IMG/VR virus record: IMGVR_UViG_3300046542_000259
DNA length: 64,000 bases
Origin: a virus
Taxonomy: Duplodnaviria; Heunggongvirae; Uroviricota; Caudoviricetes
Reading direction: 5' to 3' (one strand)
Position 1 is the stretch's first letter; every line of letters starts with the position of its first letter. The position numbers and the translations under genes are program-made. The notes under the pieces are model-generated. The model worked only from the letters and a program-made list of their open reading frames with translations. It made no database searches and was not told the DNA's origin. This document shows positions 1,435 to 59,385 of this stretch, one piece after another.

Positions 1435-2696
1435 TGGTTGATATTACTACGATCACTACTGTAGCAGAATCGCAGTTTCATACGTGGCTACAGGCGCAGA
1501 TGAGTAACGATTTCCTTATCGCTGGTATCGGAACTGTGGTTCTCAGTGGCGCGATGTACGCCCTGAAAAGCATTCCGGGTAAGTTGTGGAACGCCATTTA
1601 TCGGCGTTCCACAATCACGGTTGATGTTTTTAGTGATAATAATAATTTCGTAGACATTGTTACGGAATTAAATAAGAACACGATTAACCTCCTGAGCCGT
1701 AAGAACGTGCTTGACAAAGAATCTATGAGCGTTGGGCTCGGCGGGTCTTGGTCTTATTTCAGAGGCAAACTTGTTAAAATTAGCCGTGAAAAGGAAAAGA
1801 GCGATAGTAAGGAATTCAAACAGAACCTATCGCTTACGTTTTTTCTAAAGAAGAAAAGCACGGTGATTAAACTGTTTGAAGATTTTTTTGCAGAAAAGAA
1901 GCTGGTAAACAAGGCTAAGACTAAAGTTTATACCCTAAATAAGGATTGGGTCGAGCATCTAAAGGACATCCCCAAGCGTCCACGTGAAAGCGTTTTCATT
2001 GATCCTGCCACGCTAGATCATATTGAGAAAAGAGTTAAGTTCTTTCTTAGTAACAGAAAGTGGTACGAGGATCGCGGCATTCCCTACAAATACGCAATTC
2101 TTCTTCACGGCGTCCCCGGTACTGGCAAAACCACGTTGGCCAAGTACATCGCCGCGATTACTGATCGATCAGTGGTGATGGTAAGTCCTTCGCGTCTCCC
2201 CGGCCTAGCCGTGGCTCTGAATGATCACAACTATGACGAAAACCCAAACAGAAATGCTTATCTTGGGGTTATGGAAGATATCGATTGCGACAACATTACG
2301 TCTCGCCGCGACGATCCAACCGACACGCAAGATGATAAAGAGAAGACGGCAGAAAAATTCAGCATTGTTTCCCTAGCTGATCTGCTGAACGCTATAGACG
2401 GCATCAATAGCCCTGAGAATTTTATTCTTGTGGCCACGACTAATCATCTCGGTAGTCTCGATCCTGCGCTGTTCCGTAAAGGAAGGTTTGATGACGTGAT
2501 CGAAGTGATGCCGTTGGAGACTTCAGAGATCGTTCGAATGGTCAAGTATTTCTTCGGTGTGACAGAAATTAATGGTACGGCGGCGGAATACGAACCGACC
2601 CCCGGCTCAGTGGTTCAAGATGTTATTCTTCAATATTTTGACGACGGAATTGAAAAAGTAGTGAGTGTGCTCAATGAAAAATTTGCAAGAATTTGA
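1434..2696 (+). CDS. BCS1-like AAA+ ATPase with N-terminal membrane anchor
   Basis: N-terminal hydrophobic helix; RGIPYKYAILLHGVPGTGKT Walker A; MEDID Walker B; LLNAIDG; ATTNH..LDPAL.R.GRFD. Confidence 0.85.
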   Translation: MVDITTITTVAESQFHTWLQAQMSNDFLIAGIGTVVLSGAMYALKSIPGKLWNAIYRRSTITVDVFSDNNNFVDIVTELNKNTINLLSRKNVLDKESMSVGLGGSWSYFRGKLVKISREKEKSDSKEFKQNLSLTFFLKKKSTVIKLFEDFFAEKKLVNKAKTKVYTLNKDWVEHLKDIPKRPRESVFIDPATLDHIEKRVKFFLSNRKWYEDRGIPYKYAILLHGVPGTGKTTLAKYIAAITDRSVVMVSPSRLPGLAVALNDHNYDENPNRNAYLGVMEDIDCDNITSRRDDPTDTQDDKEKTAEKFSIVSLADLLNAIDGINSPENFILVATTNHLGSLDPALFRKGRFDDVIEVMPLETSEIVRMVKYFFGVTEINGTAAEYEPTPGSVVQDVILQYFDDGIEKVVSVLNEKFARI

Positions 2697-3396
2697 TAAG
2701 CTCAAGAAGCTGGAAGCAGAACACGAGATTCGCATCCCAAGTGATCAGTATATCGTGGCCCGTTTGGATGGACATGGTTTCTCGAAATTTACTAAAGGAT
2801 TAAAGAGACCGTTCGATGCCACGCTTAGAGAAGCGATGGCGGATACAACCAGAGCTTTGCATAAAAAGTTTAATGCTACGTATAGTTATACGCAATCAGA
2901 TGAAATAACTCTGATTTGGGAGCCTCGTATGGATCGCAGCGGCAAGGCATTGGTCGAGCATCCTCACTCAGGAAGAGTGGTAAAACTGTCCAGCCTAATG
3001 TCCAGCTATTGCTCTATTGAGTTCTATAAACTCATTCACCATTACAAAGAGAGTAGTTACAATGGCTTTGATTGTCGTGTCTATGGCTGCGACAAGCTCG
3101 ATGCTTTTGATTCTCTGCGGTTTCGCATGATTGATTGCGCCACGAATGCGTACCAGTCCGTGGCTCAAAGCATGTGGAGCCCGAAGCAATTACAACGTGT
3201 TTCGGTGCAGCAAATTAAGGCCATGCTTCTTGAAAAAGGAATCGATGTCTGGAAGGAATATGGCGACGACGCCATGTTGGGCGTTTATTTTTACAAGGAA
3301 ATGAATGAGGAGTTGGAACGTAGTAAGATCGTGCGTTCTAACGGCGGTGAAATGATGAAAGCAATTAAAGAAATGAATTTATCCATTGACATTTAA
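2665..3396 (+). CDS. Thg1-like tRNA-His guanylyltransferase / 3'-5' RNA polymerase
   Basis: RLDGHGFSKFT..RPFD, YTQSDEITL, GR..KLSS, FDCR motifs of the Thg1 family; start codon uncertain. Confidence 0.88.
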   Translation: MCSMKNLQEFDKLKKLEAEHEIRIPSDQYIVARLDGHGFSKFTKGLKRPFDATLREAMADTTRALHKKFNATYSYTQSDEITLIWEPRMDRSGKALVEHPHSGRVVKLSSLMSSYCSIEFYKLIHHYKESSYNGFDCRVYGCDKLDAFDSLRFRMIDCATNAYQSVAQSMWSPKQLQRVSVQQIKAMLLEKGIDVWKEYGDDAMLGVYFYKEMNEELERSKIVRSNGGEMMKAIKEMNLSIDI

Positions 3397-3830: not shown

Positions 3831-5403
3831 AAAAGAGATTTTCTCCGCGATTAAGAAATATGGATCAGCAAGAAAAGCAGCTGCTGCGTTAAACATCCCG
3901 AAATCCACCTTTAGCGATGCGGTACGCCGCGCCAGAACCCATAAGTTCACAGAGCGTCAAGTAGTCAAGCCTGTGATCCTGAAAGCCCCGAAGAAGAAGG
4001 GGACGGTTAAGCGGTACATCTTAACCAGCTGCCAAGATTCTACCAAACTGCACCCGTTTTTTGAAGTTCTCAAGGTCTATGCAAACTATTTGGATGCTGA
4101 ATTGATGGTTTCTGGCTATACTTACAATAAATCTTTATTCGAGGAACATAGTAAACATAAGGTAACTTTTCAATCTGAAGTTCTACCTTATCTCACTAAT
4201 GATAGAGTACTTATCAGCGAAAAAATCGCATTTTGCGGAGAGATGAATATTCTCCCGACAGCTGCCGATCCTTTATTAGGATTGAAGACCTATACGGGGA
4301 GCAAATGGAGTGTAATCCCTCACGCGAAAATTCGATTAGAATCAGTTCCAATGATGAAGGGTGATCCAGCTAAGATCGTCATGACGACTGGTACGATCTC
4401 GAAACCGAACTATGTTCCCAAACGTGCGGGCCTACTTGCTGAGTTTCACCACACCTACGGCGCGGTTCTGGTAGAGGTATGTGCGGATGGGGAATTTTTC
4501 TGTCGTCATCTAATGGGAGAAGATGATAGCGGGAATTTTTATGACTTGGATAGGTACGTCACCGTTGACGGTGTTACAACTTGTAATAGAATTGCGGCAT
4601 TGACGTATGGAGACATTCACTATGAGAAATTGTGTGAAGCTACCGCAGTAGCTTCACTAGGGTTCTCACCCTCACTGAAGAAGAATGTCTCCACCAGCAG
4701 CTTGCTTGACACGCTCAGACCGTACCAGCAGTTTTTCCATGACACGATTGATTTTCGTTCGAGGAATCACCATTCCATCAACGACCCCCACTTCCGTTTC
4801 GAAATGTATGTTAACGGAACTGAATCTGTTGAACAAGACCTCCGAGATGCTGCTAATTTCCTTCATCAGACTCGGCGGGATTGGTGTACCTCTGTTATTA
4901 TTGAATCTAACCATGATACGGCCCTTCTCAAGTGGCTCAAGACAGGAGACTACCGTCAAGACCCTGTTAACGCGATCTTCTTCCTAGAAAATCAGTTAGC
5001 TAAATATGTCGCGATCCGCGACGGTGATAAGAAACACAACGTTTTTTGGGAAGCGATCAAACGGTATAGCCCCGATAACGCCAATTCCCTCGTCTTTGTT
5101 TCCGAGGACACATCATACAAAATATGTGGCGACATTGAGGCAGGGATGCATGGACATCTTGGCGCAAATGGGGCGCGTCCTTCGCCGCGCTCTTTTTCCA
5201 AGATGGGGACCAAGGCCAACACCGCTCATACTCATTCTTGTTCCATCTTCGATGGAGTGTGGACCGCTGGTGTTATGGGGTCTCTAGACATGGGCTACAA
5301 TAAAGGATTATCGTCTTGGAGTCCGACACATATTGTTACCTATCTTAACGGTAAGCGAGCCATGCTCACCATGAGTGGAAGCGGTAAGTTTTATGCTGAG
5401 TGA
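3817..5403 (+). CDS. N-terminal HTH plus calcineurin-like metallophosphoesterase
   Basis: HTH-like SARKAAAALNIPKSTFSD; GDIH, HD..D, ESNHD, HGH, HTHS metal-binding motifs; start moved to ATG 3817. Confidence 0.7.
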   Translation: MNLSEKEIFSAIKKYGSARKAAAALNIPKSTFSDAVRRARTHKFTERQVVKPVILKAPKKKGTVKRYILTSCQDSTKLHPFFEVLKVYANYLDAELMVSGYTYNKSLFEEHSKHKVTFQSEVLPYLTNDRVLISEKIAFCGEMNILPTAADPLLGLKTYTGSKWSVIPHAKIRLESVPMMKGDPAKIVMTTGTISKPNYVPKRAGLLAEFHHTYGAVLVEVCADGEFFCRHLMGEDDSGNFYDLDRYVTVDGVTTCNRIAALTYGDIHYEKLCEATAVASLGFSPSLKKNVSTSSLLDTLRPYQQFFHDTIDFRSRNHHSINDPHFRFEMYVNGTESVEQDLRDAANFLHQTRRDWCTSVIIESNHDTALLKWLKTGDYRQDPVNAIFFLENQLAKYVAIRDGDKKHNVFWEAIKRYSPDNANSLVFVSEDTSYKICGDIEAGMHGHLGANGARPSPRSFSKMGTKANTAHTHSCSIFDGVWTAGVMGSLDMGYNKGLSSWSPTHIVTYLNGKRAMLTMSGSGKFYAE

Positions 5404-5906: not shown

Positions 5907-6235
5907 TCGTCAATATCGGATTCTTTGAGATCATAAACCGCGTCAGAAATTGCTGCGTCATTGATCAAATCCATAAGAATTTCTGTCCCGGCCCAAATAG
6001 CTTCGAAATCCTTTTTCGAAATGGTGAGATCGGGAAGCTGCTCACAACGCTTGGCAAACAAAGTTCCCATTTCATCGACATAGCCATCAGCGGATACGGC
6101 CCGAAGATGGATAGTTATTTTGTCATAACGAAGTCTTCCGAAGTTCTTTTGCCAGTTATTAAGGGCTTCAATAGTCGAATTGCCCTTTCCCCAGCAGTTT
6201 GCGCCTACGGCCATCACATGTGTCAAGGTTTCCAT
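5903..6235 (-). CDS. Hypothetical protein (lone reverse-strand gene with own promoter)
   Basis: 110-aa ORF, RBS GGAG, promoter at 6271-6299. Confidence 0.7.
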   Translation of the reverse strand: METLTHVMAVGANCWGKGNSTIEALNNWQKNFGRLRYDKITIHLRAVSADGYVDEMGTLFAKRCEQLPDLTISKKDFEAIWAGTEILMDLINDAAISDAVYDLKESDIDD

Positions 6236-6270
6236 TCAAATTCTCCTTTGGTGCTTTCCTTACATTTGGC

Positions 6271-6299
6271 AGTCTAGGACGAACTAAATACGCTGTCAA
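6271..6299 (-). promoter_or_regulatory. Sigma70-type promoter for ORF 5903..6235
   Basis: TTGACA-17 nt-TAGACT on - strand. Confidence 0.55.
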
Positions 6300-6329
6300 G
6301 AACTTTTGAATCACTTTAAGGAAAATTAA

Positions 6330-6797
6330 ATGACTTTACAAACTAAACGATATGTGTTAGGATTTGCGTTCTGGCGGGAGCAAGTCGCACTGATCTTCAA
6401 AACCAAAGGGCCGGAATATGTAATTGGGACTTGGAACGGTATTGGCGGCAAGATAGAAGCTGATGAAACCGGCCCAGACGCAATGGCGAGGGAATTCTTT
6501 GAAGAAACAGGGGTTAGGATCGATTCGGGATTCTGGTATCTATTCGCGGCCCAACGCGGCAAGTCATGGGACGGTCCTGAATATGAGCTAAATTGTTTCG
6601 TGGCCCATTTGCCGGAAGATGGTAATTTTACCGAAATTAACAATACTGAGGGTGATGGTGAGGTGGTTAGTTGGTTTACCTACGGCGACTATGAAACCAG
6701 AGATTCCTTTGAAGACATCATTACACCGAACCTTAAATGGCTCCTCCCTCTAGCGCTAGATCATACCACTGGTTTCCTAGAGATTAGAGAACATTAA
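6330..6797 (+). CDS. Nudix hydrolase
   Basis: Nudix box GGKIEADETGPDAMAREFFEETG. Confidence 0.9.
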   Translation: MTLQTKRYVLGFAFWREQVALIFKTKGPEYVIGTWNGIGGKIEADETGPDAMAREFFEETGVRIDSGFWYLFAAQRGKSWDGPEYELNCFVAHLPEDGNFTEINNTEGDGEVVSWFTYGDYETRDSFEDIITPNLKWLLPLALDHTTGFLEIREH

Positions 6798-6959
6798 ATG
6801 TGTAATAAAAAAGATTTAAGTGAGACAGAAATTGAAATATGGAACACGGCCTTAGAATATGCGGCACGTGCTATAGAAGAATTTCATCTCAGTAATACCG
6901 GCATTCCCCATCCAATAGCTGTTGCGGATGCTAAAAGAATCAGGAACTTAAAAATATGA
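6798..6959 (+). CDS. Small hypothetical protein (53 aa, not in ORF track)
   Basis: MCNKKDLSETEIEIWNTALEYAA...; abuts upstream stop, ATGA overlap with next gene. Confidence 0.55.
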   Translation: MCNKKDLSETEIEIWNTALEYAARAIEEFHLSNTGIPHPIAVADAKRIRNLKI

Positions 6960-7387
6960 CAATTTTACTAGAAGATTTTAGGCCGATTAGAAAATTTGAA
7001 GAATTGAAACTTAGTAATTGGCCTAAGTATTATTTTGTCTATGGTGATGAGTTTGAGCCTCGTTATAGAACAATGTTCTTGACGAAAGAGATTTATGAAA
7101 TCGGGAGTCACAAATTCTTTCAAACCTCAGAAAAAGTTATTTTGAAGGCTCATGCATTTAAGTACGACTATAACTTCAAGCAAATAAATGGTCCAGACCA
7201 AGAAATGGTTTGTCTGGCTCAGATTGTTGATGAGTGGACCGAAAACTGCTTCACGTTTAAACCGGAACGGTGGAACCTGTCTGAAACAGGAGAAGAGTCT
7301 CTATCTTCGAATAACCTGATTTTCACTGACGAACTGGACGCCGGGGCTTTCGTAATCTGGCTCAGGGAGCGTCGCGGTAGTGAGTGA
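6956..7387 (+). CDS. Hypothetical protein
   Basis: 143-aa ORF translationally coupled to neighbours. Confidence 0.65.
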   Translation: MTILLEDFRPIRKFEELKLSNWPKYYFVYGDEFEPRYRTMFLTKEIYEIGSHKFFQTSEKVILKAHAFKYDYNFKQINGPDQEMVCLAQIVDEWTENCFTFKPERWNLSETGEESLSSNNLIFTDELDAGAFVIWLRERRGSE

Positions 7388-8410: not shown

Positions 8411-8439
8411 TTGACTTTTTAAAAATTTTATGTTACCTT
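8411..8439 (+). promoter_or_regulatory. Possible sigma70-type promoter overlapping the polymerase ATG
   Basis: TTGACT-17 nt-TACCTT; same TTGACTTTTTAAAA spacer style as other phage promoters. Confidence 0.4.
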
Positions 8440-11150
8440 CCGTACATAATAAATATCACGGCACAGCGCCGGTCTCCGCTGTGTATTGTGGCCGTGGTTC
8501 TCGATACGGGAACCCTTTCGTCATCGGACGTGACGGCGATAGAGATGAAGTTTGTGATAAGTTCGAGCAACTTATCCTCCCTGATTTAGATGTTTCAAAG
8601 TTACGAGGAAAAGATTTGGTTTGTTTCTGCAAGCCAAAGCGTTGCCACTGTGACTCAATAATAAGAAAAGCGAATCTGCCTTTGGCCATAAATAGAAAAA
8701 AACTCCGTACAGCTATTTTTGACATAGAATCTGACGGCTTGCTTGACAGAATCACTAAGGTTCATGTTCTTTGCATCAAAGAATTTGAAACAGGTAAGAA
8801 ATTTAAGTTTTTAGAACATGAGATCGAAGAAGGGCTTGAGCTTCTTCGTGATGCTGAAATGGTAGTGGCTCATAACGGCTTAGGGTTTGATATTCCTGCG
8901 CTTTTCAAACTCTATCCAGATTTTGAAATCAATGGGAAGATTCGGGACAGTCTTGTGATGACACGTGTTATGTTCTCGCATCAGAAAGAACTTGACTTCC
9001 GCCTCTATGAAAAAGGTATGCTCCCATCTGAATTTATTGGAAAACATAGCCTCGATAGCTGGGGTTATCGTATCGGTAAGTACAAAGGTGATTATTCTAA
9101 AATTAAGCGGGCCGAAGCAAAAGCCCTTGGCATAACTGATGAAGATGAATTGCTAGACTACGTTTGGGGACATTATACTCCTGAGCTTGGCGAATATTGT
9201 GAAAACGACGTTGAAGTCACGGATGAATTGTGGAAAATGCTTCTGGAACAAGATTATCCAGAATTTCCTATCGTGTTCGAGCATGAGTTTGCGGACTACT
9301 GCGTAAGGCAAGAAGCTAACGGCTTCCCGTTCAACACTGAGGCGGCGCAAGCCCTAGAAGCTGACCTACGTGGCTCTAAAGATATTATCGTAACAGAGTG
9401 TGAAAAGAACTTTCCGTCTCGGTTAGAGGCTTCTTCGAAGACGACATACGGTAAGCTTCGTGAAGAATTTAACGCCGTTGATTGGGACAAAATTGATAAT
9501 CCTGAGTTAGAGGATATGGTTTACGATCTGTTATCAGGTCATGATCAAGACAAACCAGTCCCCACAATGACTATCCCTAAAAAGACCTTGAGATACAAAG
9601 ACCCGGCTCGTGGTGATAGAACCGCTGGATGCCCTTTCACACCGGTTTATTTCAAAGAATTTAATCCCGGTTCGCGCCAGCAAGTCGCTACACGGTTGAT
9701 GGAACAAGGTTGGGAACCTACTGATTTCACGGAAAAGGGTAATATCAAAATTGACGATATTATTCTCAAGAACGCAGCGGAACGTTTTCCAATCGCCGCA
9801 ACTCTAGCAGATTACTTCGGCGTTAACAAGACCCTTGGTCAGTTAGCCGATGGTGATAATGGTTGGCTAAAGCTTGTAACTCCTGAAAATAAAATCCATC
9901 ACTATGTAAATCCTTGCGGCGCTGTGACAGGTCGTTGTACCCATGCCAAACCTAACCTTGGTCAGGTTCCGGCTATTTCAAAGGATAAAGAAAAAAATAT
10001 TAAGATGGGTCGAGACGGCGGCTGGGGTTTTGAGTGCCGTTCTCTGTTCTACACCACATCTCCATTCGTTATGATGGGTAGTGACTTGAGCGGTATTGAG
10101 CTTCGTTGTTTGGCTCACTACATGGCAGAGTTTGATAATGGCGAATATGCGAAAGAACTGCTTGAAGGTGATATTCACACCGTTAATATGAACGCGGCGG
10201 GGCTTGAAAGTCGTGATCAGGCCAAGACCTTCATCTACGCCTGCCTTACTTTTGACACAATTGTACTTACCGCAAGCGGTTGGAAATCTTTTGACAAATT
10301 GGTTGATGGCGAAGCGGTTTGGTCGTGGAACTCTATCGATAGAGTAATGGAGTATTGTCCTATCACTGAAAAAGTGAGTTATGGCGAAGCTGATATTTGG
10401 ACCGTAAATACAGATAGTGGCAATATTCGTTGCACTCCGAATCATCGTTGGTATCTAATTAACGGTAAAGTAATTGAGGCACAAGACCTTATTGCCGGTG
10501 ATCAAATTAGAATTGATGAATTTAGTTATGCCAGAGTTCTCACTGTAACCGACTTGAAACAAAAAGCTCCTGTTTGGTGCATCGGGACTGTAAATAATAC
10601 ATTCTATTGCCGTTCCGCTACTGGCTATCAAGGCATTACAGGTAACACGCTTTATGGCGCTGGCCCTCAAAAGATTGGTTCAATTGTTTTACCTTTTGCT
10701 TCTGAAGCGGAACAGACTCGCGTCGGCAAAGAATTACTAGACCGCTTCCTACGTAACATGCCAGCGCTTAAGAAACTGATGAAGAATCTTAAGAATGAGG
10801 CCCGCCGTGGTTTCATTATTGGTCTAGATGGTCGTCGCCTCTATATCAGGGCGCAACACGCCGCGCTCAACACCTTGCTTCAAAACGCTGGTGCTATGAT
10901 CGCTAAAAAGTGGGTCCTACTGTTCGAGCAATACATGGAAGCTGAAGGATATGTTCATGGCTGGGACGGAGATTTCGCGATGATGGCTTTTGTTCACGAT
11001 GAAATTCAGGTTTCAGTTATGGAAGCTCTGGCTCAAATGGCTGGTGAAACATCTCAATTAGCTGCGGCTGATGCAGGGGATTTCTTCGGGTTCAAACTCC
11101 CCGTCGCGGCGGAATATAAAATTGGGTTGGATTGGGGCCAGACGCACTAA
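8430..11150 (+). CDS. Family A (T7-like) DNA polymerase with 3'-5' exonuclease, N-terminal DUF4326-like domain and mini-intein
   Basis: GRGSRYGNPF...LVCFCKPKRCHCD (DUF4326-like); FDIESDG, AHNGLGFD, YCENDV exo motifs; SDLSGIELR motif A; AKTFIYA-[intein]-TLYGAG motif B; VHDE motif C. Confidence 0.93.
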   Translation: MLPSVHNKYHGTAPVSAVYCGRGSRYGNPFVIGRDGDRDEVCDKFEQLILPDLDVSKLRGKDLVCFCKPKRCHCDSIIRKANLPLAINRKKLRTAIFDIESDGLLDRITKVHVLCIKEFETGKKFKFLEHEIEEGLELLRDAEMVVAHNGLGFDIPALFKLYPDFEINGKIRDSLVMTRVMFSHQKELDFRLYEKGMLPSEFIGKHSLDSWGYRIGKYKGDYSKIKRAEAKALGITDEDELLDYVWGHYTPELGEYCENDVEVTDELWKMLLEQDYPEFPIVFEHEFADYCVRQEANGFPFNTEAAQALEADLRGSKDIIVTECEKNFPSRLEASSKTTYGKLREEFNAVDWDKIDNPELEDMVYDLLSGHDQDKPVPTMTIPKKTLRYKDPARGDRTAGCPFTPVYFKEFNPGSRQQVATRLMEQGWEPTDFTEKGNIKIDDIILKNAAERFPIAATLADYFGVNKTLGQLADGDNGWLKLVTPENKIHHYVNPCGAVTGRCTHAKPNLGQVPAISKDKEKNIKMGRDGGWGFECRSLFYTTSPFVMMGSDLSGIELRCLAHYMAEFDNGEYAKELLEGDIHTVNMNAAGLESRDQAKTFIYACLTFDTIVLTASGWKSFDKLVDGEAVWSWNSIDRVMEYCPITEKVSYGEADIWTVNTDSGNIRCTPNHRWYLINGKVIEAQDLIAGDQIRIDEFSYARVLTVTDLKQKAPVWCIGTVNNTFYCRSATGYQGITGNTLYGAGPQKIGSIVLPFASEAEQTRVGKELLDRFLRNMPALKKLMKNLKNEARRGFIIGLDGRRLYIRAQHAALNTLLQNAGAMIAKKWVLLFEQYMEAEGYVHGWDGDFAMMAFVHDEIQVSVMEALAQMAGETSQLAAADAGDFFGFKLPVAAEYKIGLDWGQTH
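10242..10646 (+). mobile_element. 135-aa mini-intein (no endonuclease) in polymerase motif B
   Basis: Starts CLTFDTIVLT, block B TPNHRW, block F VWCIGT, ends ITGN followed by Thr+1; removal restores KTFIYATLYGAG. Confidence 0.92.
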
Positions 11151-13576: not shown

Positions 13577-14380
13577 ATGGCAAATGAACTAACAACACGT
13601 ACCAATAACGCTGTAGCAACTCCCGCCGCTGGTGGTAATCCGTTCCTACAAGCCGCTGGCGCACTAGGCGGCGGCAATGAAGGTCTCACCTATCTTTCAT
13701 TCTCAGGAAAGACGGGAGACTATACTTATGGTCAAGAAAAAGATGAGCTTGACGGTCCTTGGAAAGGCGCTGTCAATATGCAGTCAGCCGCTAGAGGCTG
13801 GATTTGCTGGATTAGTGGGGCGGTAGAAGGCGAAGAAATGGTTAAGATTCTTGAGGGCAATCCGCCGCTCAAGTCTCAGTTGGAAGACCCCGGCCCGCTT
13901 GACGATGAAGACGACGGTTGGTCTGAGCAGTTTAGCTTTGAAGTAGGTGAAATGAAAAGCGGCGAAAAGCTTCTTTTCAAGAACGGCTCAAAGTCCGGTC
14001 TCCGAGCCTTTGGTAATCTCCTGTCTCAGTACGGTCGCGCAATTCAGAAGGGTCAGAACCTCGATGACAATGGTGAAGAATTGCATCCTGTAGTGGAATT
14101 CGACTCTGTCGAATTTACCCCTAAAAATAGCAAATCCAAGAAAGATAGGGCCTATGCTCCATCATTCAAAATCATTGATTGGATTAGTGAAACTGAGCTT
14201 GAAGAAATGTTTGGTGGTGAAGACAATCCAGACAACTACGAGGAAGAAGAAGCTCCAAAGGCCGACGCCAAGAAGAAGGCTGCAAAGCCCGCTCCTGAGC
14301 CTGAAGCCGAAGAGGCAGAAGCTGAAACCCCTGCCGAGGAAGCTCCTGCTGAAGGCGGTCGCCGTCGTCGTAGGTTTTAA
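13577..14380 (+). CDS. Phage single-stranded DNA-binding / recombination protein
   Basis: Located between exonuclease and helicase; YLSFSGKTGDY, GWICW, P.F.II.W motifs; acidic low-complexity tail. Confidence 0.7.
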   Translation: MANELTTRTNNAVATPAAGGNPFLQAAGALGGGNEGLTYLSFSGKTGDYTYGQEKDELDGPWKGAVNMQSAARGWICWISGAVEGEEMVKILEGNPPLKSQLEDPGPLDDEDDGWSEQFSFEVGEMKSGEKLLFKNGSKSGLRAFGNLLSQYGRAIQKGQNLDDNGEELHPVVEFDSVEFTPKNSKSKKDRAYAPSFKIIDWISETELEEMFGGEDNPDNYEEEEAPKADAKKKAAKPAPEPEAEEAEAETPAEEAPAEGGRRRRRF

Positions 14381-14413
14381 TAAACCCATTTAAAGTCAAA
14401 TCGTAATTGAACA

Positions 14414-14443
14414 ACTCCGAAGCTATTGATTTAGCTTCGGAGT
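14414..14443 (+). terminator. 12-bp hairpin between SSB and the intein-like gene (terminator or translational control)
   Basis: ACTCCGAAGCTA-ttgatt-TAGCTTCGGAGT perfect inverted repeat. Confidence 0.6.
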
Positions 14444-14458
14444 ATTTGGAAATAATTT

Positions 14459-15514
14459 ATGTCATTAAGCAGTAATGCAGTTTTACAGACTCCTCATGGA
14501 GCAAAGCGGGCTAGTGACCTTAAAATGGGCGACCATATATTCAATAGCGGCGGACAAATAAACAATGTTTTAAGCATAGTTAACGAAGGCTTTAAGCCTT
14601 GTTATCGAGTAAAGTTCTCAGATAGCACTTACGTAGATACCGATTTATCACAAAAATTTAAAGTCAGAATCTACACAGCCACAATTGAAGGTATTAGAAA
14701 AGAATTTTTTAAGTTATTAAGCTTAGAAGATATAATTAAAAGAGAATTTAAAATGCCGTCAGGTGCTTTCAAACATGTAAACGTCATGAATTCCGCTGTG
14801 ATCTATCCTGAGAAAAGCGTATACATCCACCCTTATATTTTAGGTATTTTGCTCGGGGATGGTCATTTAAAGGGATCAAGCCCTTATTTCTCCCTTTGTA
14901 ATTCTGAAACTGAGATATTATCATTTATAGAAGATAAGTTACCTAAAAATATCGAATTAAGCTTAAAGCAATATCCCGGTTGTTGGAGGGTGTCTCTGAT
15001 AGAACCTTCTGTACATAAACAGAATAAAATGAAAGATGCCATTAAGCAATTAGGATTAGACGTTAAGGGAGATAAAAAATTTCTTCCTGATATTTACAAA
15101 TATAATAGTGTAGAAAATAGGATTGAACTTTTGAAAGGGTTGATGGATTCTGACGGCCATGCTCAGTTGATTGATGGGACAGCTAGATTTTACACAAGCA
15201 ACGAAAAACTAGCTACGGATGTAATTGAGTTAGTTAATTCACTGGGAGGCATAGTCTACAAATACGAATCAAAAAGAGGGGATAAAGTTAAACCAGCGAC
15301 AGAATTTACGTTAGTTTTGCGATTGAATTTCAATCCTTTTAAACTCTCGACAAAAAATAAAAATTGGCGGCCTATGAAACGCACTCGAATCAATAAAACA
15401 ATAATATCAGCTTCATACATTGGTGAAAAAGAAGTAATTTCTTTTAATATTAATGGCGGAGATAATTCATTTTTGGCTGATAATTTCATAGTGGTATCAG
15501 GAGATGCACAATGA
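14459..15514 (+). mobile_element. Free-standing intein-derived (HINT + LAGLIDADG) homing endonuclease gene
   Basis: Intein-like block A and F/G folds, two LAGLIDADG motifs (YILGILLGDG, LLKGLMDSDG); in-frame TAA 6 nt upstream of ATG so no N-extein; ends VVSGDAQ-stop with no HN/C-extein. Confidence 0.8.
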
Positions 15515-16845
15515 CAATCTCTCTTACAAATCACCAAAATGACGCTGTTAAAAAAGTAGTTAGATGGTTCAAGGAGGCATCACAGGTTGTGGAACCTAAA
15601 TATTGCTACTTAGCCGGGTATGCTGGCAGTGGTAAGAGCAGCGTGCTTCCTTTTATTATCGAAGCTTGCGGACTAGACGCTGATGAGGTTTGCGTACTTG
15701 CACCGACCGGTAAAGCAGCGAGAGTCGCTGGTAAAAAATTAAAGGGCGCTGGGGTGAATATTACCCCTAGAACTATTCACTCTATGATTTATCGGCCAAA
15801 AGCGTTGAAGGCTGAGGTTATTCAGTATAAAATTGCTGATCTTGGTAACGCTTTAAGGGCCGCAGCTGAATATAAAACGAACGAAGTGTTTTTTGAAGGT
15901 AAACGCTACGATATTAAACAAGCGCAGCAAACTCTAAAAATGCTTAATACTGATCTTGAAAAGGCTTACATTAGCACCGATGGGCCTACATGGCAGCTAA
16001 ACACTGAAAGTCCTATTAGAGAAGTCTCATTAATTATCATTGACGAGTCTTCAATGTGCGGGGCTTCAATGGCTGAAGATTTGAAGTCTTTTGGAAAACC
16101 TATTCTTGCCATTGGTGATCCGGGACAGCTTCCACCTGTAAAAGATTCTGCTGGATTCTGTGTCGGGGAGCCAGATGTATTTCTTTCGGAGATTCACCGT
16201 CAAGCCAAGGACAACCCCATAATCGCGCTTGCTACCCATATTCGCGAAGGAGGGGATTTCAAATTAGGGAATTGGGGGGACACAGTTAAGATCGTTAGCA
16301 GGAAAAACGATACCGACACATATGATGTTGATCAAGACTTGCAAGTTCTTTGTGGCACTCACGTGAAACGTTGGAATCTTACTAAAAAAATTAGGGCAGC
16401 AGCTGGTTATGACCTAATAGGTCCCATGGCTGGAGAACCGTTAATTGTTAGGAAGAATTCTAGAACATCCGAGACACTAGTCAACGGAATGTTATTAACT
16501 TGTGAGCAAGATTATGAATTAATTCATGGTAAGGCTACGTTTCCTTTAAAAGCTACAGACGAAGATGAAGTCCAAAGGAATATCATAACCTGTCAAGCGC
16601 TTTTTGAAGAGCATTTTGCACGGCAGTCAGGCTATGTAAGCGCTGATAAGAGAGATGGCTATGAAGCCAAGAAAAAACATCACCTCGTGGATTGGGCGTG
16701 GGCTCTGACCTGCCATTCGTCACAGGGCTCACAATGGAATAAAGTAGTTGTGCATGACGAAGGTAGTTCATTCCGCGAAGATATTGATCGTTGGCGTTAC
16801 ACCGCCGTAACTCGTGCCGCAGAAAAACTAACAGTGGTGATTTAA
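15511..16845 (+). CDS. RecD/Dda-like SF1B DNA helicase
   Basis: GYAGSGKS, LAPTGKAA, IDESSM, GDPGQLPPV, TCHSSQGSQW, YTAVTRA. Confidence 0.92.
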   Translation: MTISLTNHQNDAVKKVVRWFKEASQVVEPKYCYLAGYAGSGKSSVLPFIIEACGLDADEVCVLAPTGKAARVAGKKLKGAGVNITPRTIHSMIYRPKALKAEVIQYKIADLGNALRAAAEYKTNEVFFEGKRYDIKQAQQTLKMLNTDLEKAYISTDGPTWQLNTESPIREVSLIIIDESSMCGASMAEDLKSFGKPILAIGDPGQLPPVKDSAGFCVGEPDVFLSEIHRQAKDNPIIALATHIREGGDFKLGNWGDTVKIVSRKNDTDTYDVDQDLQVLCGTHVKRWNLTKKIRAAAGYDLIGPMAGEPLIVRKNSRTSETLVNGMLLTCEQDYELIHGKATFPLKATDEDEVQRNIITCQALFEEHFARQSGYVSADKRDGYEAKKKHHLVDWAWALTCHSSQGSQWNKVVVHDEGSSFREDIDRWRYTAVTRAAEKLTVVI

Positions 16846-58415: not shown

Positions 58416-58489
58416 TGGACCAAACTCTAGGTAACTCTCCTAGTTAACTGATTCCACAGATCAGTGCATTAATTTTATGCTAAGCTTGG
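58416..58489 (-). tRNA. Non-canonical tRNA-His(GUG) or tRNA-like RNA
   Basis: 7-bp acceptor CCAAGCU/AGUUUGG, U73, CCA; 4-bp D stem; CUGAU-CU GUG GA-AUCAG; 5-bp T stem; D loop AAAAUUA and T loop AGAGUUA lack consensus. Confidence 0.7.
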
Positions 58490-59385
58490 ATTTTATTTTC
58501 TTCTCTTTTTATATCTTCATCAAACCATACAACTAAATTAATTCCTTGAGCTTTAGCGGCGTCCCATTTCAATTGATCGTTTTCACGCTTAAAGCCTTTA
58601 GTTTCAATATAGTATACAGTATCATCATTATTTTCAACTTTGAAATCTAGAAGATATGTCGCATCTTTCCCATTAACTTTGACATAAGGTATTCTATCTC
58701 TAGTATAATCCCATGATTTAATTAAGTTATTGTCTAACCAATTATCAAGGATAGCACAAGTCCTTAATTCATAAGTACCTTGAACTCGGTGATTTTTATA
58801 GGTGTACCACTTTGTTCTCCCGCCTAGAGGCAACTTGGTTCCGTCTCTATATTGCTGGGCAACAAAATTACTAATATATGTAGAAAAATTCCCATAATTT
58901 TCTGCGTTCTTTTTATGCATTTTCCTTATGTTAATTTTTCCAGCGCATTTTATCGAGCAATATATCTTCCTATTTTGGGCTTTATTATTTTTACTAACTG
59001 TGAATGTATTTCCGCAATAACAGGTCTTCTGTATTTCAATCTTTTTAGTTTTATTTAAAAGTGTAGTAGAAATTTTCTTATTCTTAGAGGCTTTAAAATC
59101 TTCGGATTTCTCTCTTTCCGCATTATTAAAACTTGCGGCATGTGAGGAATTACAAAATTTATTGTGTCTCTTCTCATACGGAAGGATAGAAAAACAAAAT
59201 AAGCACTTAGAGGGATTTAATCCATAATTAGTAGTATTATCTTTTATAATCTTTAAATTATCTTGTATCCTCCTTTCTTTATATTCTTCCATCAAAACTT
59301 TGTCATGAACTTTTTTATGTCCATTTAATGCTTGACTAGTTTTAAATTCTTTATTACAGATTTCGCACTCATAAATTTTATTCAT
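58480..59385 (-). mobile_element. Free-standing homing endonuclease-like gene: C2H2 and Cys-rich zinc fingers plus TnsA-like PD-(D/E)xK domain
   Basis: CEICNKEFKTSQALNGHKKVH; C..C/FC..SH and C.C/YCS..C knuckles; QG.YE, YLLDFKV, YYIETKG; AT-rich, inserted within tRNA array. Confidence 0.75.

Follow-up and report, generated by a model that had tools for sequence, protein, structure and literature searches.

Inteins are usually deemed to be tied to their host protein, since splicing alone makes the insertion harmless. The open reading frame (ORF) considered here lies at 14459..15514 (+) of a 64,000-nucleotide (nt) stretch of DNA of a Caudoviricetes virus (IMG/VR record IMGVR_UViG_3300046542_000259; the whole stretch is called the window). 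It encodes a 351-residue protein (P0001) which, on ORF, domain, fold and homologue evidence, is an intein-derived LAGLIDADG endonuclease standing free of any host protein. It is probably a free-standing homing endonuclease gene that arose by the escape of a class 3, P-loop-targeting intein, as suggested by its ancestry, its fold, the nuclease residues it has kept, the clade of stand-alone proteins to which it belongs and its presence or absence at one locus. The preliminary description of this DNA, made from the sequence alone, had already proposed an intein turned into a free-standing, splicing-dead LAGLIDADG endonuclease gene, and the same five lines of evidence support that proposal well.

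The closest described systems each share a part of these features. Class 3 inteins, with the DnaB intein of mycobacteriophage Bethlehem as prototype, are defined by a Trp/Cys/Thr triplet together with a non-nucleophilic residue 1, and favour the P-loops of helicase-like proteins (PMC2807308). From end to end, the ORF protein is homologous to the P-loop inteins of this class, hosted by phage and bacterial helicases, SNF2, PhoH and terminase large subunits, and has the same Hint and LAGLIDADG domains; it is nested in their helicase-type branch, and orthologues of the adjoining helicase host them. It differs from them in having no exteins, no Trp/Cys/Thr triplet, no terminal His-Asn and no +1 Ser/Thr, and in occupying an intergenic slot with a start and a stop codon of its own. 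The yeast WHO and HO genes, of intein-like LAGLIDADG type, evolve rapidly under an arms race and home next to an essential gene with no need of splicing (Coughlan et al. 2020, PMC7282813; Osborne, Monnin & Wolfe 2026 preprint, 10.64898/2026.08.13.744650). Like them, the ORF is a fast-evolving, stand-alone, intein-derived LAGLIDADG gene beside a conserved gene, polymorphic for presence and absence, and by ancestry it resembles a phage counterpart of these elements. However, it is phage-borne, lies 5' rather than 3' of its neighbour and has a class 3 rather than a VMA1-type parent, and its product lacks the C-terminal zinc finger, ending three residues past block G with no further Pfam domain. 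As regards the neighbour replacement of WHO/HO elements, the N-terminus of the adjoining helicase groups like the rest of that gene, in a comparison where saturated divergence hides conversion tracts.

The Seg and Mob homing genes of T4-like phages are likewise optional, AT-rich intergenic cassettes at breakpoint positions, next to a neighbour which is still expressed. Those genes, however, encode GIY-YIG or HNH enzymes with no Hint domain and no intein ancestry, whereas the ORF encodes a two-motif LAGLIDADG protein with a dead splicing domain. PI-SceI, derived from VMA1 (structures 1vde, 1ef0 and 1lwt), has the same two-domain layout and the same spacing of catalytic Lys and Asp, but it is only about 16% identical to the ORF protein and is an active class 1 intein within VMA1. 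No published description of a stand-alone intein-derived nuclease gene in phages was found, a weak negative given the thin coverage of subscription journals.

The complete intein layout without exteins (Hint domain plus two LAGLIDADG motifs), as first described for the ORF, is borne out by HMMER, Pfam and AlphaFold. Pfam LAGLIDADG_3 is matched at residues 222-276 with 31.8 bits against a cut-off of 22.5. With HMMER, residues 5-99 match the DnaB and gp41-1 mini-inteins and residues 158-266 match PI-SceI 253-361, while a PHROG terminase family matches residues 6-266 at 1.5e-27 through the part of its profile that covers an intein. The AlphaFold model, built on a 49-sequence alignment, has a predicted local distance difference test (pLDDT) score of 94 and a predicted template-modelling (pTM) score of 0.92. 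Its top fold match is PI-SceI at full length (E 9e-18, template-modelling score 0.74), including the DNA complexes 1lwt and 1lws, followed by the archaeal VMA and PI-PfuI inteins. Mini-inteins superpose on the N-terminal Hint lobe only (81-101 columns), and it is to this lobe that the class 3 DnaB intein 6bs8 and gp41-1 align. Blocks A, B, F and G of the Hint fold are all present: blocks A and B in the N-terminal lobe at 14462..14743 (+; alignments, model strands 8-88), and blocks F and G in the C-terminal lobe at 15395..15502 (+; alignments, model strands 313-347).

Hundreds of proteins are 30-38% identical to the ORF protein over its whole length. Almost without exception, the part that matches it is inserted in a host protein, and its junctions read GxGK↓(A/x)-Q-P ... 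V-T-H-N↓T/S (arrows mark the intein boundaries). The host sites are the Walker A loops of SF1 (Dda- and UvrD-like) and SNF2 helicases, PhoH and terminases. The consensus of these relatives has Trp in block B, Cys at position 4 of block F, Thr at position 5 of block G and a non-nucleophilic residue 1. The search for the closest intein relatives and their host genes, which the preliminary description had recommended, therefore led to the class 3 Walker A inteins of phage helicases, PhoH and terminases, and the tree described below supports descent of the ORF from this group. The same intein clade also occupies a second site in PhoH, after RG(R), in the context ..FMRG R↓AQP...THN↓TF (P0004, P0006, P0008, P0010 and others); the Walker A and the second PhoH sites have a common G-(K/R)↓(T/S) flavour.

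The splicing positions of the ORF protein were read against about 300 true inteins. Met1 aligns with the -1 extein residue (the Lys of GxGK) and Ser2 with intein residue 1. In block B, His is replaced by Gln, in agreement with the loss of the block B His noticed earlier, and Trp by Phe; in block F, the Cys at position 4 is replaced by Ser. Block G reads Val-Ser-Gly instead of Thr-His-Asn, followed by Asp-Ala-Gln and the stop codon, so that the terminal His-Asn is indeed Ser-Gly as first read, and the +1 residue is Asp, as compared to Ser/Thr in true inteins. The class 3 residue set (Trp B12, Cys F4, Thr G5, C-terminal Asn and +1 Ser/Thr) is absent from the ORF, whereas the triplet is present in its relatives. 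The prototype class 3 intein cannot do without its block F Cys, and a change of this residue to Ser abolishes splicing and cleavage alike (PMC2807308). With every class 3 splicing residue replaced, the ORF protein is confidently predicted to be splicing-dead. Ser2 was considered as a relic nucleophile and rejected, since the parent class 3 inteins begin with Ala, as do two stand-alone relatives (P0002 and P0293) to this day.

Nor is there anything to splice. Met1 stands at the -1 position, Asp-Ala-Gln alone lies past the last Hint residue, and both neighbouring genes are complete. The SSB-like gene upstream of the ORF ends in a double stop at 14378-14383 and is separated from the ORF ATG by 78 untranslated nt with a hairpin. 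An in-frame TAA at 14453..14455 (+), one codon ahead of the ATG on direct reading of the sequence and given earlier as 6 nt before it, excludes an N-extein. On the other side, the TGA of the ORF and the ATG of the helicase overlap as ATGA at 15511-15514, the coupling that had been pointed out in the preliminary description; all of the factual statements made there on the ORF proved correct. This ATGA junction, and the proximity of a helicase whose orthologues host such inteins, are what could be said for a true intein, fused to the SSB-like protein or the helicase, that has been misread through an assembly or frame error or through recoding. The double stop, the 78 nt with the hairpin and the in-frame TAA all contradict such a fusion, as do the complete helicase with its unbroken Walker A motif, the missing block F Cys, terminal Asn and +1 Ser/Thr, and the repetition of the layout on independent contigs, which together leave the misread intein a negligible likelihood. 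An assembly artefact behind the stand-alone layout is unlikely also because the identical P0001 protein was found on three contigs and the 35%-identical P0293 has the same layout on an independent 185-kb contig, L086.

The nucleotide composition of the ORF also sets it apart. Its GC content is 0.343, as compared to 0.424 for the window, and falls within the lowest 1.1% of 1056-nt windows; the ORF is thus AT-richer than its surroundings, as had been noticed. The P0293 gene has a GC content of 0.274 against 0.357 for L086, so that the genes of both carriers lie about 8 GC points below their genomes.

In contrast to the splicing residues, the nuclease residues are kept. The first LAGLIDADG motif, PYILGILLGDGHL, occupies residues 125-137 (14831..14869, +) in the alignments and retains Asp134; among 49 aligned sequences, no change occurs at G133 or D134 and G135 reaches at least 90% conservation, and all three are invariant in the three stand-alone proteins described below. 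The second motif, RIELLKGLMDSDG, at residues 221-233 (15119..15157, +; Pfam and alignments), retains Asp230 and Asp232, of which D230 is invariant, as is G233, and D232 is at least 90% conserved in the same alignment. The protein therefore has the two LAGLIDADG helices, each with its terminal acidic residue (D134 and D232). Lys207 (15077..15079, +), 25 residues ahead of the second catalytic Asp and invariant in the stand-alone proteins, is, we infer, the counterpart of PI-SceI Lys301, since the spacing from Lys301 to Asp326 is the same and the HMMER register places residues 158-266 on PI-SceI 253-361.

The stand-alone layout recurs in P0002 (357 residues, on a 4.4-kb ENA contig) and P0293 (352 residues), which are 38% and 35% identical to the window protein, respectively. 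P0001, P0002 and P0293 all start with M-(A/S)-L-S, have all lost the block F Cys and all end in x-Gly-(Asp/Glu) with 0-8 further residues. The trio forms a clade, in a tree built on 90 intein domains, with a support of 99 in the Shimodaira-Hasegawa-like approximate likelihood ratio test (SH-aLRT) and a stem of 0.49. The helicase-type inteins (Dda, UvrD, SNF2) among which this clade is nested form a group with a support of 99, separate from one rich in PhoH and terminase inteins. The tree is unrooted and was obtained with a quick LG+G4 search, so that only the clade and its surroundings are claimed. When 5.8 billion clusters were searched with a profile of the trio under a word filter, the 8,000 candidates scored included no fourth member; the scores fall from 544 bits to 237 bits.

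The clade bears directly on the possibility that the ORF is a decaying relic, i.e. an intein stranded by a rearrangement, inactive and drifting towards loss. Such a fate would fit the loss of all splicing residues, the long tip branches of the trio (0.75-1.2, against a median of 0.45), a weak ribosome-binding site and the great rarity of the family. However, three lineages with only 35-38% identity to the window protein still have unbroken ORFs of 351-357 codons, where neutral decay over such a divergence would be expected to leave stops and frameshifts. Moreover, variation is confined to the splicing positions, with no change in the LAGLIDADG motifs, K207 or the fold core, and the pLDDT of 94 likewise speaks for an intact protein, so that decay appears distinctly improbable.

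Three further proteins, P0072 (359 residues), P0067 (402 residues) and P0069 (336 residues), are also stand-alone, degenerate, intein-like LAGLIDADG proteins. P0072 falls outside the clade of the trio, among the PhoH/terminase inteins; P0067 and P0069 were aligned and left out of the tree. They look like independent escapes, which suggests that the escape of inteins may have happened repeatedly.

The ORF is an optional element at a conserved locus. The left flank is an SSB-like gene, also matched as a 'nucleotidyltransferase' (phrog_9528; PHROG 3.6e-57), with an acidic tail, at 13577..14380 (+); the right flank is an intact Dda/RecD-like SF1 helicase gene at 15511..16845 (+), with matches to Pfam AAA_30 and UvrD_C_2 and to a PHROG Dda-like helicase (2.3e-88), judged complete because its product aligns with homologues from residue 1-4. 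The replication module, in the order polymerase, exonuclease, RecE-like, SSB-like, helicase, dNMP kinase and ThyX, is syntenic in cultured relatives, among them Microcystis phage Mwe-JY26, Sphingobium phage Lacusarx and Erythrobacter phage L02. Four IMG/VR contigs are closer (L086, L088, L089 and L091), with helicases 61-71% and RecE-like proteins 77-81% identical to those of the window. The helicase and RecE-like alignments, used as queries, gave these same four IMG/VR contigs only; the window helicase as a lone query gave no IMG/VR relative, and one metagenome scan gave nothing nearer than 25%-identical helicases.

Among these genomes the cassette is present in the window and in L086 (184,940 bp), where P0293 is encoded at 6001-7059 in the same slot between the SSB-like and helicase genes. 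It is absent from the same syntenic locus of L088, L089, L091 and Mwe-JY26, in all of which the SSB-like gene directly precedes the helicase; the space between the two genes, free of any ORF, is 158 nt in L088, 159 nt in L089 and 76 nt in L091. The helicase groups the window with L088 (71%) and L089 (70%), and L086 with L091 (89%), with 61% between the window and L091, so that each sublineage holds one carrier and a non-carrier. The SSB-like protein groups differently, pairing the window with L091 (77%) and L086 with L088 (73%), as compared to 63% for L086 and L091 and 63-65% for the helicase-type pairs. This discordance places a recombination breakpoint, with exchange of modules, at the cassette slot. 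The occurrence of nuclease genes at boundaries of genetic exchange is a pattern reported for phages by Barth et al. 2023 (PMC10448857). Between the window and L086, the ORF products are 34% identical, as compared to 63-79% for the flanking genes.

The same locus data can be read in terms of domestication, the ex-intein having become a site-specific DNA-binding or nicking factor that works with the helicase, or an excluder of co-infecting relatives. There is a precedent in HO (PMC7282813), and both the tight coupling to the helicase start in the two carriers and the retention of an intact ORF through divergence to 34% identity would agree with a useful function. Patchy occurrence, foreign composition and a breakpoint position are, on the other hand, marks of a selfish cassette; a useful partner of the helicase would be expected in L088, L089, L091 and Mwe-JY26 too, and excluding competitors by cleavage amounts to the same mechanism as homing. 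Domestication is therefore considered unlikely, and the escaped homing endonuclease remains the preferred reading.

The boundaries of the cassette show how it fits between its neighbours. A perfect, terminator-like hairpin of 12 bp follows the SSB-like gene at 14414..14443 (+), as first described, with a centroid fold of -20.9 kcal/mol; the 101-nt stretch which holds it has a z of -3.1. Hairpins of 11-13 bp follow the SSB-like gene in all five phages, variable in sequence and constant in place, 15-30 nt before the next ATG. Since they occur with or without the ORF, the hairpin is older than the insert and is part of the conserved intergenic region. It is probably the terminator of the SSB-like gene; a promoter and terminator scan, in which the hairpin falls short of the T-run criterion, gave no result beyond that expected from shuffled sequence. 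At the left junction, the hairpin of L091 is followed by AAAGGATTTAAAT and the ATG of the helicase, and that of L086 by TAAGGATTTATT and the ATG of the ORF; judging by this correspondence, the L086 cassette has taken over the leader of the helicase.

At the right end, the AGGAG Shine-Dalgarno sequence of the helicase lies at 15499..15503 (+), within the last codons of the ORF (Ser-Gly-Asp), and is homologous to the ribosome-binding site of insert-free helicase genes; the sequences compared are AGGAGATGCACAATG in the window, AGGAGATTGCAATG in L088 and GGGAGAATGAGCGTG in L086. The window reads TCA GGA GAT GCA CA-ATG-A, and insert-free L088 has GAAGGAGATTGCA-ATG ahead of the helicase. L086 reads ATG GGA GAA TGA GC-GTG, and alignment puts this GTG at the helicase start. 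In both carriers GGAGA serves as the helicase Shine-Dalgarno sequence and encodes the Gly-Asp/Glu that replaces the intein terminal Asn and the +1 residue. We infer the same GGAGA coding for the C-terminal Gly-Asp/Glu of P0002. The conservation of these two residues is thus attributable to a Shine-Dalgarno constraint at the DNA level, and the Gly-Asp/Glu ending is not to be taken as a protein motif. The overwriting of the terminal His-Asn by the Shine-Dalgarno sequence of the next gene would be an example of how genome packing shapes cassettes. As the aligned junctions indicate, the slot has a fixed position, downstream of the conserved hairpin and no further than about 20 nt from the start codon of the helicase, with neither neighbour apparently harmed; helicase expression would be preserved by the Shine-Dalgarno sequence in the last codons of the cassette, whether carried in or retained.

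In a mixed infection, the enzyme would cut cassette-free genomes in or close to the junction of the SSB-like and helicase genes, the start of the helicase gene or the DNA coding for its Walker A motif, and repair off the carrier genome would copy the cassette in, by intron-less homing of the T4 Seg/Mob type or in a manner like that of yeast WHO. The Hint domain of PI-SceI helps to bind DNA, and the dead Hint domain of the ORF protein may have been kept for the same role. Two candidate targets can be named. The first is the junction together with the helicase start, for which the evidence is suggestive: the helicase start ATGTCAATTAC is common to L088, L089 and L091, although in the L091 comparisons just about 45-50% of the third codon positions of shared residues agree, and is changed in both carriers. 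The second, for which it is circumstantial, is the ancestral class 3 site in the Walker A codons. The Walker A motif of the window helicase, GYAGSGKSS (15616..15642, +), is uninterrupted in the sequence, as had been stated, and its canonical class 3 site, K42↓S43, lies 122 nt past the ORF stop. True inteins of the same clade sit at GYAGSGK↓ in the orthologous helicases P0229 and P0218, whose exteins are 45-47% identical. The motif reads GK-SS in the window alone, as compared to GK-TA in L088 and L089 and GK-TT in L086 and L091. The suggestion in the preliminary description that the enzyme may target intein-free helicase alleles therefore gains from the inteins of P0229 and P0218, but it does not fit as well with the position of the ORF itself, which is at the helicase start and 122 nt away from the Walker A site.

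A Walker A target was also sought in the sliding identity of the helicase genes and rejected. The identity between the window and L088 is lowest at helicase codons 16-45, the P-loop included (nt identity 0.54); this dip was dismissed since the comparison of L086 with L091 is unremarkable at the P-loop and the dip corresponds to a naturally variable linker. No nuclease target could be read from the five diverged genomes.

The ORF may further represent a phage element of a third, WHO-like kind, which, from its place just 5' of the helicase gene, would cut the DNA of the helicase start or Walker A motif in phages that lack it, spread by gene conversion with no splicing involved and be engaged in an arms race with its target. 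This extension is offered tentatively, as a possibility somewhat short of even. An arms race would explain the 34% identity of the ORF products beside 63-79% for their flanks, the GK-SS Walker A motif and the breakpoint at the slot.

Several points weigh against the escaped homing endonuclease. The nuclease activity of the ORF protein is predicted from sequence and model, and its cleavage sites are candidates. The family has only three members, by HMMER of 1.84 billion cluster representatives and the profile search of 5.8 billion clusters, and the genomic context is readable for just two of them. A single ancient gain with later losses, instead of homing that still goes on, could account for two carriers at one site. 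Neither dN/dS nor co-conversion tracts are obtainable, since all comparisons are saturated at synonymous sites (third-position identity 0.4-0.55). The pattern at ATGTCAATTAC, suggestive as it is, could equally arise from constraints on translation initiation. Finally, the ribosome-binding site of the ORF itself is weak, with GGAG 17 nt upstream, inside an arm of the hairpin.

The polymerase gene of the window (8430-11150) contains a mini-intein of 135 residues at 10242-10646 (+), in motif B (AKTFIYA↓C...GN↓TLYGAG). The family A polymerases of L086, L088 and L089 are uninterrupted at this point (AKTFIYA[L/T]LYGAG), and the mini-intein is thus optional. Its nearest phage matches are ribonucleotide reductase inteins. 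The preliminary description had also proposed that the ORF protein mobilises this mini-intein in trans, an idea that draws on the presence of both in one genome and on the absence of a nuclease domain from the mini-intein. The Hint domains of the two nevertheless show no similarity (BLAST E = 11), and the mini-intein groups with other inteins, those of ribonucleotide reductases. Furthermore, no intein interrupts the polymerase of L086, a carrier of the ORF, both elements are missing from L088 and L089, and the relatives of the ORF target GxGK↓T/S, not polymerase motif B. Mobilisation in trans is accordingly very improbable, and this part of the earlier proposal is not retained.

If the ORF is an escaped intein, it shows how an intein can turn into a free-standing nuclease, opposite in direction to the usual model of a free-standing nuclease invading an intein. 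It would also provide a prokaryotic-virus parallel to yeast WHO/HO, with an ex-intein that persists as a homing gene in a phage replication module. As a compact, confidently modelled predicted LAGLIDADG enzyme of 351 residues, the protein is tractable for specificity mapping, since its target probably lies within a few hundred base pairs.

Some minor observations were made elsewhere in these genomes. The polymerase of the window has a DUF4326 domain (Pfam 1.9e-18; 8430-8720, +) fused to its N-terminus, whereas the L086 polymerase (687 residues) lacks it and begins with the exonuclease domain. Between the RecE-like and SSB-like genes is another variable slot: L086 has there, at 4616-5032, an ORF of 138 codons without a Pfam match, and L091 has two small ORFs at 2459-3029, whereas the window, L088 and L089 have no counterpart. 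An ORF of 301 codons lies in the part of the window richest in AT (58480-59385, -; GC 0.31), and its product has a C2H2 zinc finger at the N-terminus (Pfam zf-C2H2_6, 8.5e-09) as its sole domain match; this may be another foreign or mobile gene.

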